From IMG/VR virus record IMGVR_UViG_2724679239_000007, positions 1-24,973 of that record: 24,973 nucleotides of DNA; one strand, 5' to 3'. The notes beneath the pieces were generated by a model. The model worked only from the letters and a program-made list of their open reading frames with translations, had not been told where the DNA came from and searched no databases. The translations under genes and the position numbers were made by a program. This DNA is from a virus. Its lineage: Duplodnaviria; Heunggongvirae; Uroviricota; Caudoviricetes. Below, piece after piece: positions 1 through 20,452 of this stretch (its first letter is position 1; each line of letters starts with the position of its first letter).

Positions 1-343
1 TCAGGCATGGCACACCCCCTGACGAATACGGGCGGCGAATACCATCACGCAGCCAGCCGGGGATTGCTGGCGTGCTTCCTGTTCGCTGCTGGCCACGATG
101 TGAATCACGCGCGGTTGTGCGGTGCTCAGGGCGATAAAACGCCAGATGTATTTATTCAGGTCGTGCGAGTCCCGCCCTTGCGGGTGTGTGGTATGATTTA
201 ACATAGCTACCTCGATACTGTTGCTATCGTTGGTGGTTAGACGCCCTGCATGTGTTCCAGCACTGCGGGGCGTTGCGTTATTAAATGCACACGTGTTAAT
301 GTGTACACCTATCGAATGAAAACATAACGCCATAGGTGTACAC

Positions 344-538
344 ATGTCAACAATAATTAAACGCGATAAAAAACCCAAAGGGACAGGAAAGGCTCCCCCT
401 TTCCATATGCGTATAGCTCCAGAACTGAAAGAACAGTTTGATAGCGAGGCTAATAATGATGGTGTAAGCCTTGCTAACTGGCTTAAAGAGTTAGGGCGCT
501 CCGAACTAAAGCGGCGCGGTATCGAACCTAAGGGGTGA
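344..538 (+). CDS. Small ribbon-helix-helix-like DNA-binding protein (YlcI/YnfO, DUF3950-like)
   Basis: 64-aa ORF with motif HMRIAPELKEQF...GVSLANWLKELGRSEL, resembling Arc/MetJ-type RHH small prophage proteins; lies in an AT-rich segment. Family assignment from memory only. Confidence 0.4.
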   Translation: MSTIIKRDKKPKGTGKAPPFHMRIAPELKEQFDSEANNDGVSLANWLKELGRSELKRRGIEPKG

Positions 539-569
539 ATTACTACTTCTATGATAGGATATATTAACA

Positions 570-1013
570 ATGAAGAGATTTAGAACAATATTACTAAAAA
601 TACTCGGTGCAAAAACATCCATTGCCATATTATGTGTTTTTTGTGGAGCAAGCTTTTTGTTCGGCCAATATCTTAATGATATGAATCTATTCGCCAGCTC
701 AGGTGCAATTATTTCAGTTTTTGGATTGTTGTATACAATCAAGTTCACAACTTTAAAAAAATTATCTAATCGCGAAGCTGAAATTAATTCACGCAGTGGC
801 GTAACTGGCCCGCCATTGTCTGCGGAAGAATCACAAAAGATACGAGAAGAAAACTTAGCTAAAGCTCGAGTTGAGGTCAGAGAGGAAATAAAAGCTGAAG
901 TACTCGGGGTTGGACTAACTGTTTTTGGCACCATTATATGGGCATATGGCGGATACATAAAAATTATTCCATCCCTCGTAATGTGGATAAGACATTCATT
1001 GTTGATGCAATAG
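570..1013 (+). CDS. Hypothetical small membrane protein (two predicted TM segments flanking a charged helical segment)
   Basis: ATG start; 147 aa; hydrophobic stretches near the N- and C-termini with a charged central segment (EESQKIREENLAKARVEVREEIKAE); AT-rich codon usage; followed by a hairpin plus T-run. Confidence 0.45.
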   Translation: MKRFRTILLKILGAKTSIAILCVFCGASFLFGQYLNDMNLFASSGAIISVFGLLYTIKFTTLKKLSNREAEINSRSGVTGPPLSAEESQKIREENLAKARVEVREEIKAEVLGVGLTVFGTIIWAYGGYIKIIPSLVMWIRHSLLMQ

Positions 1014-1035
1014 GGAAAAATATAAAAATAAAACT

Positions 1036-1066
1036 GGCGACCACCTCGGTCGCCTTTACTTTTATC
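1036..1066 (+). terminator. Rho-independent terminator-like hairpin downstream of the membrane protein gene
   Basis: GGCGACC-acctc-GGTCGCC stem-loop followed by TTTACTTTTAT. Confidence 0.4.
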
Positions 1067-1229
1067 TAAAGTCCAATTGATAAAATAAAGAACTGCAGCA
1101 TCTATTCCTGCAAAACTTCATGCTTTCAGGACGGCTGCTCATATGTCATTTTTTAGCAGAAGATTTTGCCTTGCTGGTGGGGAGCTTCCCGGTTAACACG
1201 ATGTATCGTATAATCAGCAATGCGCGTGG

Positions 1230-1811
1230 TTACTGAATACGCTCACCAAAGTAAAACTCAGGCTGATATTCACGTATCAGCCTTTTTTCTTCTTCCTCCA
1301 GCTCACGCTTTTTGCGCTTACATGCCTGTAGCTCCCTCCCCTTCTCGCTGGCACTTATTTGATATTGCTCTTTACGGCGGGAAAAATCCTGTAATGCACC
1401 CCACGGGATACCATAAGCCCCCGTTTTTCTGATACCTGGTATCACATTCCTGAATACCCAGTTACTGAAACGATGGGCGAACGTGCCAGGAGTAACAGCT
1501 TTGCGACTTCTGGCGATCAGCTTGTAAAAACCAGATTCAGAAACGACGCTATGATTTGGATTTCCGCGAATACCGTAGCTTAAAGCGACGGTATTCTTCT
1601 CATCCACATCCAGAGCTTTTAGAGCATCGCGTGAGTTGCTTATTTCCAGAGCTTCACAAACATCCTTTGCAACAAACCACGGATCGCCGTTCAGATACAC
1701 CACACGAACATCCACGCCATCAAAGCGCAGAACGACAAGATCACGAATATCGCAGAATTTTTTTACTGAACGAGCGTACCCCTTGCCCGTCACGGCAATA
1801 TTTTTATTCAT
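1230..1811 (-). CDS. Bro-N domain protein (phage antirepressor-like) with C-terminal charged coiled region
   Basis: N-terminal region LVVLRFDGVDVRVVYLNGDPWFVAKDVCEALEI matches the Bro-N fold signature; C-terminus is a Glu/Lys/Arg-rich predicted coiled coil. Confidence 0.6.
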   Translation of the reverse strand: MNKNIAVTGKGYARSVKKFCDIRDLVVLRFDGVDVRVVYLNGDPWFVAKDVCEALEISNSRDALKALDVDEKNTVALSYGIRGNPNHSVVSESGFYKLIARSRKAVTPGTFAHRFSNWVFRNVIPGIRKTGAYGIPWGALQDFSRRKEQYQISASEKGRELQACKRKKRELEEEEKRLIREYQPEFYFGERIQ

Positions 1812-1869
1812 CGTTTTTTACCTCACATACAAAAAACCCCGCATTGCGTGCGGGGTATGAAAGATATTA

Positions 1870-2073
1870 TTAGTGGGGATTGGCCTGTTCTCGTTGTTTA
1901 TCTAACCATGCCTCTACATCTCTACGGTGCCAGGTATGCCGCCGCCCAATTCTGAACGGTTGAGGAAAACCATTATTTTCATCTTTCCAGAAATTGATGA
2001 ATGCGCTCATTGCCCCATAGCGCAAAATTTTCATTACGTCTTTAGTAAATAAAATATCTTCATTGGTATTCAT
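1870..2073 (-). CDS. alpA: AlpA-family transcriptional regulator / excisionase-like protein
   Basis: 67 aa; HTH pattern and the W-x-R-x-D-V-E-A-W-L C-terminal motif typical of AlpA/Vis proteins next to P4-type integrases. Confidence 0.65.
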   Translation of the reverse strand: MNTNEDILFTKDVMKILRYGAMSAFINFWKDENNGFPQPFRIGRRHTWHRRDVEAWLDKQREQANPH

Positions 2074-2085
2074 TTGCTGAACTCC

Positions 2086-3324
2086 TCAACCATTTACTAT
2101 TCTCAAACCTTTCTTACCACCGGATCTATTAATTACCCCTTTTCTCGCCTCATCAAAAAAATCTCCTACCCATTGCATCATAATTTTGCGTTGTTCTAAA
2201 TAAGTAGTTCTATTATAAATATCTCTTATTTTATCACCACTTTTATGTGCTAATGCAGCCTCAATAACATCAGGGTTAAAACCCTCCTCATTTAAAAGCG
2301 TACTCCACATCGAACGAAAACCGTGTAACGTTACAATCCCTTTGAACTTGCTGGCAGCAATTGGGGTATTGATAGTATTCTTTCCCATAGGAGCATCTTT
2401 TGTTCTGGAGGAAAAAAATATATAACGCCCTCTTTTTATTTTCTGCATTGTTCTTAGGATTCTAATAGCCTGTGATGAGAGAGGCACAACATGTTCACGA
2501 TGGCATTTCATTTTATGCGCGGGGATAATCCACAAGCCAGAATCAAAATCAATCTCGGACCACTCTGCTTTAATCGCCTCACCTGGCCTGACCATTGTCA
2601 ATATCTGGAATAAAAGTGCATTGTGAGCTATTTGATACTTATGAGGCACACTATCCCACCAACTCAGAAATTCAGGCAATCTTTCAACAGGTAGTGCAGC
2701 TAATGATTTATTTTTCTTTCCTGTGAATGCAGTTTTTATCTTAAGTAATGGATTCGTTTTCAATGCTCCACAATTTACAGCGTAATTCATAATTTCATTT
2801 AATCTTGATATTAATTTTTTTTGCAACGCATTCTTATCGGATACGGCATCCAGAGCATTAATAGCTACTGGCGCTGTAATTTTCTCTATGCTGTACTTAC
2901 CAAAGAAAGGAACAAGATATTTGTATACTTCATATTCGATATTATACAGCGTAGGTTTCCGCAATTCCGATCCCTTTTTAAAAGCGATCCATGCATTAGC
3001 AACAGCTTCAAATGTTTGTAGATTTTTTAGTGACATCTCAATTTTACGATTTTTCTTCTCTGTCACTGGATCAACTCCACGTGCAATCATTCGCCGAAGT
3101 TCATCACGTATTTCCCGTGCTTCCGCGAGTGAGAATTCAGGAAAACGCCCTATCGTGTATGTCTGCCGTTTCTTCGTTATCGGATGGCTATAACGGAAAC
3201 GCCACACTTTCCCACCAGCTTTACTCACATTCAGCAATAAACCGAACCCATCATAAACGGCATAGTCCTTTTCACGTGGTTTCATTCCCTTAACTTCAGT
3301 CACGGTTAATGGCTTTACCGGCAT
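2086..3324 (-). CDS. int: P4-type tyrosine integrase (DUF4102 arm-binding N-terminus)
   Basis: 412 aa; N-terminus LTVTEVKGMKPREKDYAVYDGFGLLLNVSKAGGKVWRFRY is typical of the P4 Int family; catalytic region with HGFRSMWST and a C-terminal IRDIYNRTTY tyrosine motif; AT-rich gene. Confidence 0.85.
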   Translation of the reverse strand: MPVKPLTVTEVKGMKPREKDYAVYDGFGLLLNVSKAGGKVWRFRYSHPITKKRQTYTIGRFPEFSLAEAREIRDELRRMIARGVDPVTEKKNRKIEMSLKNLQTFEAVANAWIAFKKGSELRKPTLYNIEYEVYKYLVPFFGKYSIEKITAPVAINALDAVSDKNALQKKLISRLNEIMNYAVNCGALKTNPLLKIKTAFTGKKNKSLAALPVERLPEFLSWWDSVPHKYQIAHNALLFQILTMVRPGEAIKAEWSEIDFDSGLWIIPAHKMKCHREHVVPLSSQAIRILRTMQKIKRGRYIFFSSRTKDAPMGKNTINTPIAASKFKGIVTLHGFRSMWSTLLNEEGFNPDVIEAALAHKSGDKIRDIYNRTTYLEQRKIMMQWVGDFFDEARKGVINRSGGKKGLRIVNG

Positions 3325-3485
3325 CTATCGCCCTCATTTTTTAGTCCGTCATGTAGTCCTTTCAAGTCGATAACAAGCGATAAACTAACTCATTATCAAG
3401 TAAAGAGAGGAAACACAAAAAATCACAACTCATTGAAAAGACTACAAAACGACACCAGAACATAAAAACAGGTAAGAAATGTACC

Positions 3486-4481
3486 CTACATCCAGAATGA
3501 CGCAATACGTGAGCGTCGGGGATCACCATAACGACTGCCATCCGCATTGATGGATTCACCATCCCGCAACCAGACCCCACGTCCGTTCAGCTCACGTTTT
3601 TGTTCAGGCATAATCCGTCCTGAACAGGAAGGACACTGAATATAAGCCGCCTCACTTGCCAGCACGGGATCGGCAATATCACGGAAACCAGCAACCACAT
3701 CGCCGCAGGGCTGAAAAAACTCACCACAGTGTGGACAGGGCCAGTACCAGCGACGGCGATCGCCACGGTTATAGAGCGACAGTATCCCCGTGGTTGGTGG
3801 AGCCTCATGCGGTGAAGTCCGTCGCCATTTCACATCCTTCACATCCCTGCCGGGGGAACTCTCCACCAGCGTCATACCGCTGGACATAAATGTGGTGGTA
3901 CGTTTTGAGGCAAGAGAGAAAGCATCCCCCTCGCCATCAATATCTTCCGGAAAACGGTCATAATCCGTCAGCGCCACGCATTTATAATCTGATGAGGACA
4001 TGATATTGACTGACGGCCAGCCGATTTTCAGGTAGTTGCCAGCAAGGAATGTTCTGTCATAAACGTTGTTGTCATTTTTGTTCGGACTCAGGCGACTGAC
4101 CACTTCCGGGCTGACGCGAAACGTTCTGGCGAGTCGTTTTTTGGAGTGTTCGCGGGCTTTTTCCTCCGTCATCTGAATGATCAGCATATCCGCAGGATCG
4201 CAAATCACGTTGTAAATCACCCAGCCGTCAATCAGGCCGATAGTCTTGCCGGTTCGTGCCGGGCCAACAAATATCACTGCGTCGTATTCACGCGAGGCCA
4301 GGCAGTTCATCGGCTCAATAACATACGGTGCCACCAGCGGATCCCACGGGACTGAGTTCCCTGCCCCCATGGGCACCCGCATATACTGAGCAACGGCATC
4401 AGCAACCCGCATTCGTCTCGGTGCGCGAAGGATATAACCTGAATCGGTTCGTGCTGCCTTTGCGGTTTCCTGATTCAGCAT
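3486..4481 (-). pseudogene. Terminase large subunit (lambda gpA-like), N-terminal ~331 aa only; 3'-truncated
   Basis: Similar to the lambda gpA N-terminal ATPase region (WPCPHCGEFFQ, GVWLRDGESI); the frame ends abruptly at about 3486 where the P4-type int upstream region begins; a full gpA is about 640 aa. Confidence 0.7.
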
Positions 4482-5995: not shown

Positions 5996-6901
5996 CTATA
6001 TTTCCAGACACCTGTTATCACTTAACCCATTACTGGCCTGCTGCCGTAGATATTCCCGTGGCGAGCGATAACCCAGTGCACTATGCGGATGCCATTCGTT
6101 ATAATGCTCGAACGCCTCTGCAAGGTTCTTTGCTGCCGTTAAACCGTCTGGTTTAGGCATGACACTGATGTAGTCACGCTTTATCGTTTTCACGAAGCTC
6201 TCTGCTATGCCGTTACTCTCCGGACTCCGCACCGCCGTGTTCTTCGGTTCAAGCCCCAACATCCGGGCAAACTGGAGTGTTTCATTAGCCCGGTAGCATG
6301 AACCATTATCCGTCAGCCACTCTACTGGAGACGCCGGAAGCTCGTTGCCGAAGCGGCGTTCCACCGCTCCCAGCATTACGTCCTGTACTGTTTCACTGTC
6401 GAAGCCGCCCGTAGTGACTGCCCAGTGCAGTGCCTCACGGTCACAGCAGTCCAGCGCGAACGTGACTCGCAGTTTTTCTCCGTTATCACAGCGGAACTCG
6501 AACCCGTCAGAGCACCATCGTTGATTGCTTTCTTTCACGGCCACTTTGCCTGTATGTGCCCGTTTCGATGGCGGTACAGCGGTTTTTCGCTCAAGCAACA
6601 GCGCATTCTGGCGCATGATCCGGTAAACCCGTTTGGCATTGATCGCAGGCATACCATCAAGTTCGGCCTGTCTGCGAAGCAGCGCCCATACCCGACGATA
6701 ACCATACGTGGGCAGCTCTCCGATAACATGGTGTATACGGAGAAGCACATCCGTATCATCTGAGTGACGGCTGCGGCGACCATCTTTCCAGTCATCGGTT
6801 CGTCTGAGAATTACGTGCAACTGCGCACGCGACACCCGGAGACAACGGCTGACTAAGCTTACTCCCCATCCCCGGGCAATAAGGGCGCGTGCGCTATCCA
6901 C
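5996..6901 (-). CDS. insD: IS2 transposase InsD (OrfB)
   Basis: 301 aa with DDE/rve integrase core; recognised as IS2 OrfB. Confidence 0.9.
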
Positions 6902-7224
6902 TTTTTTGCACGCCCATATTCAACGGCTTCTTTAAGGAGTTCATTTTCCATCGTTTTTTTTCCGAGCAGGCGCTGGAGTTCTTTAATCTGCTTCATGGCA
7001 GCAGCAAGTTCAGAGGCAGGAACGACCTGCTCTCCTGCGGCCACAGCAGTAAGACTTCCCTCCTGGTATTGCTTGCGCCAGAGAAATAACTGGCTGGCTG
7101 CCACACCGTGTTGCCGGGCAACAAGGGAGACCGTCATTCCCGGTTCAAAACTCTGCTGAACAATAGCGATCTTTTCCTGTGTAGTACGCCGTCTGCGTTT
7201 CTCCGGTCCTAAGACATCAATCAT
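6859..7224 (-). CDS. insC: IS2 InsC (OrfA) regulatory/HTH protein
   Basis: 121 aa from [12 protein letters not shown]; overlaps insD as expected for the IS2 programmed frameshift arrangement. Confidence 0.85.
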
Positions 7225-7315
7225 CTGCTCTCCAATGACTAGTCTAAAAACTAGTATTAAGACTATCACTTAAATAAGTGATACTGGTTGTCTGGAGATT
7301 CAGGGGGCCAGTCTA

Positions 7316-7410
7316 ACCAGCGTATCTGACCGATGAAATAACCGGAGCCCATAACCACAAACACCTGCCAGATAAGGATGAACTTCCAGGTGGATAATTT
7401 TTCAGCCATC
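7316..7410 (-). pseudogene. Small hydrophobic ORF (about 32 aa before insertion) between endolysin and Rz, clipped at its last two codons by IS2
   Basis: MAEKLSTWKFILIWQVFVVMGSGYFIGQIRW runs directly into the IS2 left end; after removing IS2 and one ACCAG copy the frame would end ...IRWW, with a TGA stop overlapping the Rz ATG. Confidence 0.25.
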
Positions 7411-7477
7411 ACTCGAATCTCCAGAATCAGTTTGCTAAAATCAAACACGTTTTCTCCTTTAGCTTTCCCATGGGCAG

Positions 7478-7513
7478 AAAACAAAACCCCGCTTGCTGCC
7501 AACAAACGGGGTT
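7478..7513. terminator. Bidirectional terminator-like hairpin between endolysin and the small ORF/Rz
   Basis: AAAACCCCG-(15 nt loop)-CGGGGTTTT with T-rich tracts on both strands. Confidence 0.35.
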
Positions 7514-7604
7514 TTTGCTTTTATTCACTTCCTTTTGCCAGTTTGCAGAATATCGTGTTATCCGCTTGTGTGAGCAAACGGCATTTTTCAGCAAAATATT
7601 CTGC

Positions 7605-9337: not shown

Positions 9338-9412
<75 letters not shown>

Positions 9413-9415
9413 ATA

Positions 9416-9491
<76 letters not shown>

Positions 9492-14110: not shown

Positions 14111-14278
14111 ACCCATACATCTCCTTGCCTTTCGGCACGTAAGAGGCTAATCTTCAGTTGTCGAGACATAAGACTGGCCTCACTTCGATTTATAGTCGGG
14201 TGGGGCTTTTCTCTATCTGCCTTTTGGTGTTCATGCCTGAGACAGATAGCCTCAAGCACCCGCAGCAATTCTACTTAA
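13082..14278 (+). CDS. DDE-type transposase (N-terminal HTH plus rve integrase core), IS481-family-like
   Basis: HTH region HFWDKHGISAASEAFGVSCRTLYWWRQ; catalytic D (GMDAIE), D (TDNGKEF) and E (ICERFNRTL) with about 58 and 35 aa spacing; the C-terminal tail beyond about residue 340 looks like read-through into flanking DNA. Confidence 0.7.
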   Translation: MQMQHLMVGYPKYYQTADYALRLSVMADTATMRMKALHFWDKHGISAASEAFGVSCRTLYWWRQLLNKEGPEGLIPHSKAPLVRRKKHWHPDVLKEIRRLRTELPNLGKEQIFVRLKPWCEQRYLACPSVSTIGRMIAAAHDKMRMIPVRLGSRGKALLVKKRSAKPRRPKHYRPVKTGELIGMDAIELRMGELRRYVITMIDECSNYALALAVPSLNSDIVNHFFSRAARLFPVGISQIITDNGKEFLGNFDKTLQEAAIKHLWTYPYTPKMNAICERFNRTLREQFIEFNEILLFEDLALFNQKLAEYLVLYNSKRPHKALALMTPVEYILRENKNCNMWWTHTSPCLSARKRLIFSCRDIRLASLRFIVGWGFSLSAFWCSCLRQIASSTRSNST

Positions 14279-20396: not shown

Positions 20397-20452
20397 TTTC
20401 TGGTGACGTTTGGCGGTATCAGTTTTACTCCGTGACTGCTCTGCCGCCCTTT
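20397..20452 (+). ncRNA. dicF: DicF small RNA (ftsZ-targeting antisense sRNA)
   Basis: TTTCTGGTGACGTTTGGCGGTATCAGTTTTACTCCGTGACTGCTCTGCCGCCCTTTTT matches my recollection of DicF, including the terminator hairpin GGCGG...CCGCC plus T-run; sits just upstream of dicB. Confidence 0.7.

Follow-up and report, generated by a model that had tools for sequence, protein, structure and literature searches.

How should a gene for a small DNA-binding protein and the membrane protein gene behind it be understood when both lie next to the integrase of a phage satellite: as a cognate pair, or as a conserved regulator with an exchangeable gene plugged in behind it? This question is raised by the IMG/VR virus record IMGVR_UViG_2724679239_000007, from which a stretch of 24,973 nucleotides (nt) was analyzed; this whole stretch is called the window, and all positions refer to it unless another locus is named. 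Positions 1–3483 are the integrase-proximal part of a satellite that we assign to the helper-embedded phage-inducible chromosomal islands (HE-PICIs). An original prediction made from the letters of the window had described positions 340–1100 as a two-gene, AT-rich cargo of a P4-type integrase island. We find that the first gene, encoding a ribbon-helix-helix (RHH) protein of 64 amino acids (aa), belongs to the backbone of such satellites, and that the second, encoding a predicted inner-membrane protein of 147 aa, is one of several alternative occupants of a slot that opens at the RHH stop codon. We give this architecture, taken together with the reading of the membrane gene as defence cargo, somewhat better than an even chance of being right. 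The features on which the argument is built are the following:

344–538, + strand: open reading frame (ORF) of 64 aa, Arc/Mnt-type RHH protein and candidate repressor (profile search, PHROG, AlphaFold2)
570–1013, + strand: ORF of 147 aa, predicted inner-membrane protein with three predicted transmembrane helices (hydropathy, AlphaFold2; no curated family matches)
1036–1054, bidirectional: intrinsic terminator common to the RHH-cargo unit (+) and the convergent Bro-N gene (−) (terminator scan)
539 to about 1250, unstranded: variable cargo slot comprising the membrane gene, the terminator and a spacer (homology breakpoints)

The basic anatomy agrees with what had been predicted. The two ORFs lie 31 nt apart on the same strand and are followed by a clean hairpin (GGCGACC-N5-GGTCGCC) with a run of T behind it; the hairpin scores as a terminator on both strands and would thus also serve the convergent Bro-N gene. 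The same scan reported seven terminator-like sites in 2.2 kb, with 1.9 expected. The reported AT-richness of positions 340–1100 applies mainly to the membrane gene (GC content 0.369) and less to the RHH gene (0.456), which is close to the Bro-N gene at 1230–1811 (0.462). Even the integrase gene at 2086–3324 is as AT-rich as the membrane gene (0.387), and a strong contrast exists with the left flank only (0.581 for positions 1–210). Two further candidates in this stretch were discarded. An ORF of 150 aa at 506–958 (− strand), antisense to the membrane gene, has no homology support, overlaps a gene conserved across Proteobacteria and is probably spurious; a promoter-like site at 564–592 (+ strand) was rejected because transcription from it would begin within the membrane ORF.

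Comparison with related islands separates the two genes. Nucleotide homology to sister Escherichia coli islands (88–91% identity) stops at 534–538, which is the RHH stop codon. A second RHH lineage shows the homology break at the RHH stop as well, and a weak homology to an island of Edwardsiella tarda restarts at about 1252. We took a census of the gene directly downstream of the RHH gene in 106 related loci. The RHH gene is present in every one of them whatever comes next, and a member of the 147-aa family follows it in 21. Recurrence at the same position, which had been put forward as a check, is therefore complete for the first gene and partial for the second, and the two do not hold up as a cargo pair. 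The idea that the membrane gene is accessory cargo of an integrase-associated element stands, and the slot behind the RHH gene holds the following occupants:

147-aa family: 21 loci, uncharacterised
118-aa SWIM-finger protein: 13 loci (Pfam SWIM, E = 3.2e-5)
Protein of about 450 aa: 8 loci (PD-T7-1, PADLOC, E = 2e-153)
227-aa protein: 5 loci (Pfam putAbiC, E = 2.8e-16)
Proteins of 241, 176 and 180 aa: a few loci each, no family
Small ORFs or nothing: the remaining loci

PD-T7-1 is an experimentally validated defence gene of E. coli (bioRxiv 10.1101/2022.05.12.491691). At 6218–7573 of locus L013, in the E. tarda island, it stands directly behind an RHH gene of the window's operator class, and it does so again in locus L049. 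The E. tarda island is itself embedded in a prophage portal gene. The putAbiC-like protein carries an N-terminal membrane helix (L093, 4228–4911), and the SWIM-finger protein (L070, 4217–4573) also gives a weak match to the PADLOC model PDC-S62. Examples of the occupants without a family are found in L081 (4220–4945; 241 aa), L047 (4205–4735; 176 aa) and L099 (4201–4743; 180 aa). Given its conserved flanks and exchangeable content, the interval from 539 to about 1250 is, as judged from these alignments, a sharply bounded cargo and defence hotspot whose occupants appear placed for co-transcription with the regulator. Immune systems of PICIs have been located at the 5′ and 3′ ends of the islands and beside pri (PMC11364771).

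The RHH gene has a wide distribution. A DNA search detected it in 283 of 5426 complete E. coli genomes, IMG/VR yielded 242 matches, and it is always divergent from the Icd-like/primase operon in islands of Escherichia, Edwardsiella, Enterobacter, Providencia, Klebsiella, Kluyvera, Citrobacter and Xenorhabdus. A profile built from 26 homologues matches the Arc repressor of phage P22 over its full length (1b28, residues 2–49, E = 3.3e-4) and Mnt more weakly (E = 0.074); the protein also matches PHROG 228, ‘Arc-like repressor’ (E = 9e-6). The AlphaFold2 monomer has a disordered basic arm, an extended segment at residues 19–25 and helices at 26–38 and 43–57, with a predicted local distance difference test score (pLDDT) of about 90. 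No strand is called in the extended segment, as expected for a monomer model that lacks the partner chain. The RHH call made earlier is thus confirmed, and on homology the protein is assigned to the Arc/Mnt type. Some of its homologues are named ‘HicB family antitoxin’ in the databases. We rejected HicB as an identity for the 64-aa protein: PF05534 reaches 18 bits against a cut-off of 21 and covers the RHH part only, the RNase-H-like domain is absent and the protein is only 64 aa long. In addition, no HicA-like ORF lies beside the RHH gene in the window or in the sister loci. The database name reflects the shared RHH motif only.

Around the start of the RHH gene lie an inverted repeat and a predicted promoter:

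299–312, unstranded: left arm of the putative RHH operator (ATGTGTACACCTAT), which together with 332–345 forms a perfect 14-nt inverted repeat
332–345, unstranded: right arm of the putative RHH operator (ATAGGTGTACACAT), overlapping the Shine-Dalgarno-like AGGTG and the ATG of the RHH gene
321–350, − strand: sigma-70-like leftward promoter of the Icd-like/primase operon (−35 TTGACA at 350–345, −10 TATGTT at 326–321; 10 of 12 consensus positions)

The two arms are 19 nt apart and bracket the leftward promoter, which is known as a consensus match only. In all related islands its TTGACA falls within the conserved ATG-TCA-ACA codons of the RHH gene, and a TAnnnT hexamer lies between the arms in every island inspected. 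Islands of Edwardsiella, Enterobacter, Klebsiella, Kluyvera and Providencia carry an inverted repeat of changed sequence at the same position. Across the 106 loci, which are redundant and represent about eight independent classes, the core of the repeat keeps its position and changes together with the predicted DNA-reading β-strand of the RHH protein:

β-strand PPFHMR: repeat core GTGTACACCTA
β-strand PAFQ[IV]R: repeat core GTG[TC]GTACCTAT
β-strand PQF[RK]MR: repeat core GTGG[CT]CACCTA
β-strand PMFNVR: repeat core GGTATAGACCTA
β-strand PTFQIR: repeat core GTACGTACATAAC
β-strand PPFQFR: repeat core TGTAATGTGT

Arc contacts its operator bases through Gln9, Asn11 and Arg13. When the RHH proteins are aligned to Arc, the varying positions are those of Gln9 and Asn11, and the residue at the position of Arg13 is invariant. 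Because the repeat core covaries with the DNA-reading strand in this manner, we regard the repeat as a putative operator, with repressor and operator probably evolving together as in immunity groups.

The 147-aa protein contains three hydrophobic segments (about residues 13–31, 42–57 and 112–130; three Kyte-Doolittle peaks of 1.4–1.9) and not the two of the original prediction. Its AlphaFold2 model is all-helical (pLDDT 68), with helices at 16–34, 38–75 and 85–126 and amphipathic helices at 2–12 and 134–145. Five lysine or arginine residues precede the first hydrophobic segment and eleven lie in the loop at 58–108 between the second and third segments, a distribution that suggests an N-terminus inside the cell and a cytoplasmic helical hairpin. 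Conserved motifs are found in the second helix (DMNLFASSG...FGL) and in the third (E..G...GTxIWAYG); closer relatives also share a GVTGPP turn in the cytoplasmic hairpin.

An exhaustive profile search (E < 1e-3) collected a family of 69 clusters at 50% identity. PICIs of Kluyvera, Citrobacter, Salmonella and other Enterobacteriaceae hold close homologues (70–81% identity) in this slot, and one of these homologues is recorded in 1178 blocks of the assembly collection. The allele of the window is rare, with 4 occurrences in the 5426 complete E. coli genomes. In Xenorhabdus, the membrane gene is flanked by int and alpA and is not encoded on the same strand as the RHH gene. Relatives at 42–48% identity occur outside PICIs, in defence islands, on plasmids and in other settings. 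For example, one lies in a defence island of Moraxellaceae between an FRG/DUF1889 gene and genes for TIR, DarT-NADAR (DarTG) and PHP-ATPase proteins, another adjoins a TIR gene in Aidingimonas, a third is found near a resolvase gene in Paraburkholderia, and small Acinetobacter plasmids carry relatives amid toxin-antitoxin genes. Fusions also occur: one member (P0088, 513 aa) carries a C-terminal Mrr_cat nuclease domain (E = 1.6e-25) together with further membrane helices, and others, represented by P0057 and by P0051, P0053 and P0054, begin with a zinc ribbon or with four additional membrane helices. Outside Enterobacterales, neither the RHH gene nor any other conserved partner accompanies the membrane gene, as seen in ten genomes and on Acinetobacter plasmids. 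In these distant loci the upstream neighbours are mutually unrelated, which indicates that the membrane gene travels alone.

The statement that the 147-aa protein belongs to no described system withstood the searches with hidden Markov models. Pfam gave no family at E < 0.2 for the window protein and scattered sub-threshold matches only for 38 relatives, and no NCBIfam or PHROG model matched the window protein. In PADLOC-DB v2, the best hit of the window protein was HEC-01B (E = 0.035), and the best E-value over the 38 relatives was 0.0073, in three members. A profile search of the PDB returned no relative (best hits fish-egg lectin at E = 0.27 and Csx28 at E = 2.7), and comparison with solved folds and viral folds did not identify the protein. 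EcCIMP1, a PICI at thrW with an unexplained superinfection-immunity phenotype, does not carry the RHH/membrane pair. A literature search by RefSeq accessions found no paper on the family.

Which element carries this locus follows from the genes around it. The remaining features of the satellite part and its junction are these:

1–210, − strand: 5′ part of an Icd-like gene, the first gene of the leftward replication operon (NCBIfam NF033153 phage_ICD_like, E = 7e-20; PHROG 6196, E = 2.5e-43; annotation of strain UK_Dog_Liverpool)
205–285, + strand: candidate cis-antisense small RNA with two hairpins and a T-rich tail (RNAalifold on 23 islands)
1230–1811, − strand: gene for an antirepressor-like protein with a Bro-N domain, the ‘Bro zone’ of PICIs (Pfam Bro-N, E = 1.8e-18; PHROG 2593 anti-repressor, E = 4e-83)
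1870–2073, − strand: gene for an AlpA-like helix-turn-helix regulator/excisionase (PHROG 66, E = 9e-7; weak HTH_17 match; positional equivalents in sister islands match Phage_AlpA)
2086–3324, − strand: P4-type tyrosine integrase of the satellite (Arm-DNA-bind_3, Phage_int_M and Phage_integrase domains)
About 3483–4481, − strand: first 331 codons of a lambda gpA-type large terminase gene, at the junction with the interrupted gene (GpA_ATPase, E = 1.5e-72)

The N-terminal terminase half in the window (3486–4481) is 99% identical to the intact terL of phage Ayreon up to the junction, and this homology ends at about 3483. Past the edge of the window, the leftward operon continues after the Icd-like gene with DUF4222, primase and single-stranded DNA-binding protein (SSB) genes. 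The identical locus in E. coli UK_Dog_Liverpool runs on through DUF4222, primase and SSB to a ClpP-protease/capsid fusion and a DUF1441 small-terminase-like gene. The same element, about 10 kb long, separates the two halves of terL within a complete lambdoid late region of E. coli IMT16316 (locus L117, 5338–18331); in this copy, int/alpA is disrupted by IS1. The window's own strain is missing the distal half of terL, gpW and the portal gene. The element thus lies within a late gene of the prophage and has the same orientation as that gene, whose two flanking halves are both seen in IMT16316.

HE-PICIs have been described as having four zones, for integration, Bro, replication and late functions (Tommasini, Mageeney & Williams 2023, PMC10111431), and this order is present here: the integrase and AlpA genes are followed by the Bro zone, by the replication zone with its primase gene and by the late zone. 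The late zone holds a ClpP-protease/major-capsid fusion and a DUF1441 gene (L001, 9030–11686; L117, 6825–9765) that are about 71–73% identical to helper-type copies, consistent, as far as sequence comparison goes, with captured late genes. The integrase is indeed of the P4 type, as had been stated. A P4-like satellite was rejected as the identity of the element: no psu, delta, sid, epsilon or alpha gene is annotated in the complete element (L001, L117), and only the integrase type and a primase are common to both. We classify the island as a helper-embedded PICI whose insertion site is the gene for the large terminase of a lambdoid prophage. Other islands share this habit, one in Edwardsiella cutting a portal gene and one in Klebsiella a TerL_ATPase gene. 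In the text and supplements of PMC10111431 that were searched, no site name containing GpA was found (names there are, for example, A_Terminase_1_132/246 and B_Phage_portal_2), and terL of the gpA type may thus be a further late gene that HE-PICIs target.

A strong terminator-like hairpin is located at 1836–1856 (− strand), between the alpA-like and Bro-N genes, and a second hairpin at 1260–1283, within the 3′ end of the Bro-N gene; they suggest regulated transcription from alpA into the Bro zone. The surrounding lambdoid prophage encodes a sok antitoxin RNA at 14114–14261 (− strand, 117 bits) and a DicF RNA at 20398–20449 (+ strand, 77 bits), and tRNA-Gly and tRNA-Thr genes lie at 9338–9491.

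The candidate RNA at 205–285 is complementary to the Shine-Dalgarno sequence and the start codon of the Icd-like gene. RNAalifold on the 23 islands gave 20 pairs, and compensatory double changes support 14 of these. In most sequences several of the pairs are G-U, which makes these pairs valid on the + strand only. An extended −10 element (TGgTATGAT, 189–197) was read from the sequence upstream of it. No Rfam family reached its threshold in this region (sub-threshold matches were SymR-like at E = 0.24 and MicX-like at E = 0.012), and an immunity RNA of the P4/P1-type C4 or isrK families was rejected on the same search, neither model being matched. We list the RNA as a candidate cis-antisense immunity RNA.

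Taken together, these observations can be arranged into a possible course of events. The 64-aa protein would bind the arms at 299–312 and 332–345 as a dimer of dimers. Since the arms bracket the leftward promoter and overlap the RHH start, binding would repress the replication genes of the satellite and autoregulate RHH synthesis while the element is quiescent. The 147-aa gene is separate, exchangeable cargo inserted behind the regulator; the spacer of 31 nt, the lack of a terminator between the genes and the terminator after them suggest that both are co-transcribed. Hence the cargo would be made in the quiescent state, as rexAB is with cI in lambda. Its product would enter the inner membrane with three helices and the N-terminus inside, and would most likely guard the cell population from incoming phages, either by infection-triggered permeabilisation of the membrane, i.e. 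abortive infection, or by a block of genome entry. We lean slightly towards permeabilisation, because the conserved small-residue faces of helices 2 and 3 suggest tight packing or oligomerisation and because the sole sizeable soluble part would be cytoplasmic. An entry block appears less favoured since the family spans distant hosts, plasmids and defence islands, which argues against an adaptation to the entry machinery of one phage. The specific membrane mechanism, taken alone, is tentative, and we would sooner expect it to need revision than to stand. More speculatively, Arc-like, Ant/Bro-like and Icd-like genes are found together here, much as in the immI regions of P22 and P1, and this raises the idea that an AlpA-driven Bro-N antirepressor could lift RHH repression upon helper induction.

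One different explanation would be that the two genes form a cognate module, a toxin-antitoxin or abortive-infection pair with the RHH protein as antitoxin or regulator of a membrane toxin. The layout is that of a type II toxin-antitoxin system, with a small RHH gene first, a larger gene 31 nt on and one terminator, and the HicB names and the weak PF05534 match point in the same direction. However, 85 of the 106 RHH loci lack the membrane gene, the homology breakpoint falls exactly between the two genes, and the membrane gene dispenses with the RHH gene in the ten non-enterobacterial genomes and on the Acinetobacter plasmids; in Xenorhabdus it even lies between int and alpA on the other strand. 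Neither HicA nor the RNase-H-like HicB domain is present, and the putative operator overlies the promoter of the replication operon and not just the pair's own start. We consider a cognate pair very improbable. A role of the membrane protein other than defence, be it in the life cycle of satellite or helper (lysis timing, helper interference), in maintenance or addiction, or as a membrane-stress factor, seems to us unlikely, though much less so than a cognate pair. Two relatives show a weak likeness to holin families (best Phage_holin_3_6, E = 0.0015), the small Acinetobacter plasmids are rich in addiction modules, one relative has a housekeeping neighbourhood, and accessory genes of PICIs include regulators and virulence factors (PMC6092414; PMC11773190). 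Against this, most sister satellites lack the gene, so that the satellite cycle can do without it; PD-T7-1 and the AbiC-like gene are alternative occupants of its slot; and relatives belong to defence islands or carry an Mrr nuclease domain. A lysis gene should also turn up in phages, yet the 50,697 phage genomes searched hold no match to it.

The regulatory side also allows another view, in which the RHH protein is a local autoregulator that provides the cargo with a promoter, and the replication operon is controlled by AlpA and/or the antisense RNA. In the characterised E. coli PICIs, the master activator has been shown to be AlpA (PMC6092414; PMC11773190), a conserved structured RNA lies next door, antisense to the Icd-like start, and the leftward promoter has been recognised by its consensus. 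In every island inspected, however, the −35 element is conserved within the first RHH codons and the −10 element lies between the arms, so that binding at the arms must overlap the leftward promoter, and even islands with an empty slot have retained the RHH gene. A purely local autoregulator is possible, in our view, but doubtful.

Several observations count against the repressor-plus-defence-cargo reading that we prefer. At least one relative, in Francisella, lies amid hydrogenase-maturation genes and not in an island, as read from N-terminal sequences, and tblastn of 50,697 phage genomes returned no match to the 147-aa protein. The slot also holds genes without an assigned function, and accessory regions of PICIs carry non-defence genes too. 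No convincing sigma-70 promoter for the RHH gene was found in the promoter scan, and the redundancy of the 106 loci reduces the weight of the covariation. Published work names the AlpA activator as the master regulator of Gram-negative PICIs and calls their repressor ‘unclear’ (PMC6092414). The evidence for both proteins is computational, and guilt by position is a weak argument. Within these bounds, the 147-aa protein is a reasonable candidate, from its distribution and neighbours, for a defence gene carried as single-gene cargo.

The HE-PICI context, defence hotspots in satellites and repressor-linked exclusion genes are all known already; satellite hotspots are established and exclusion genes linked to a repressor are classic, so nothing here is surprising in kind. 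The membrane family, the hotspot boundary at the RHH stop and an Arc-like regulator with covarying operators in Gram-negative PICIs seem undescribed. A literature search turned up no description of an RHH repressor for PICIs, and the repressor role proposed here would be new, since PMC6092414 leaves the repressor of Gram-negative PICIs unclear. A joint proposal would comprise a new family of single-protein inner-membrane anti-phage effectors, spread through Proteobacteria via satellites, small plasmids and defence islands, and an Arc-like protein as the missing master repressor of a large lineage of Gram-negative PICIs, which would have operators specific to immunity groups, would drive plugged-in defence cargo and is maybe countered by Bro-N upon helper induction. 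That all of this is right at once is a possibility we hold only tentatively. If the 147-aa protein is anti-phage, it would represent a compact, single-gene and widespread defence family missed by PADLOC and Pfam. The site just past the RHH stop offers a precisely bounded PICI hotspot to mine, with the occupants of 118, 176, 180 and 241 aa as further candidates. Likewise, the Arc-like gene and its covarying operators provide a testable candidate for the Gram-negative PICI repressor and suggest immunity groups among satellites.

Comparison with known systems places the locus more precisely. With the HE-PICIs of PMC10111431 it shares the integrase and AlpA genes, a dynamic Bro zone, a primase/SSB zone and a late zone with captured capsid and terminase genes, and the RHH-cargo unit lies in the Bro zone; that paper, in contrast, names neither the Arc-like gene nor this membrane protein. 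Stl (Rpr) of the Staphylococcus aureus pathogenicity islands and Gram-positive PICIs is likewise a regulator divergent from the replication operon with accessory genes on the integrase side (PMC6092414). The two regulators have no homology, however, the integrase is reversed here, and a repressor is not established for Gram-negative PICIs. The immI regions of P22 (Arc, Mnt, Ant) and P1 (c4 RNA, icd, ant) resemble the locus in the Arc-type RHH protein, the putative operator over a promoter, the nearby Bro-N antirepressor-like and Icd-like genes and a structured RNA antisense to the icd-like start. They differ in gene order and targets; the RNA of the window is unlike the Rfam C4 and isrK families, and the regulated operon is here that of primase and replication.

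In phage lambda, the cI repressor gene is followed in the same unit by rexA and rexB, which provide an exclusion or abortive-infection function. The window shares with cI-rexA-rexB the order of a repressor gene, here a candidate one, and a membrane-acting exclusion function, here a proposed one, which would likewise be made from one transcription unit in the quiescent state. There is no kinship of sequence or fold, and the cargo is here a single gene, the regulator an RHH and not a helix-turn-helix protein, and the host element a satellite. PD-T7-1 and AbiC-like proteins are single-gene defences that use the identical slot behind the RHH gene in sister islands, whereas the 147-aa protein resembles neither of these, nor any PADLOC model. 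P4-like satellites have defence hotspots too, reportedly described by Rousset in 2022. Like these hotspots and those of PICIs, the slot that opens at the RHH stop codon combines conserved flanks with exchangeable content.

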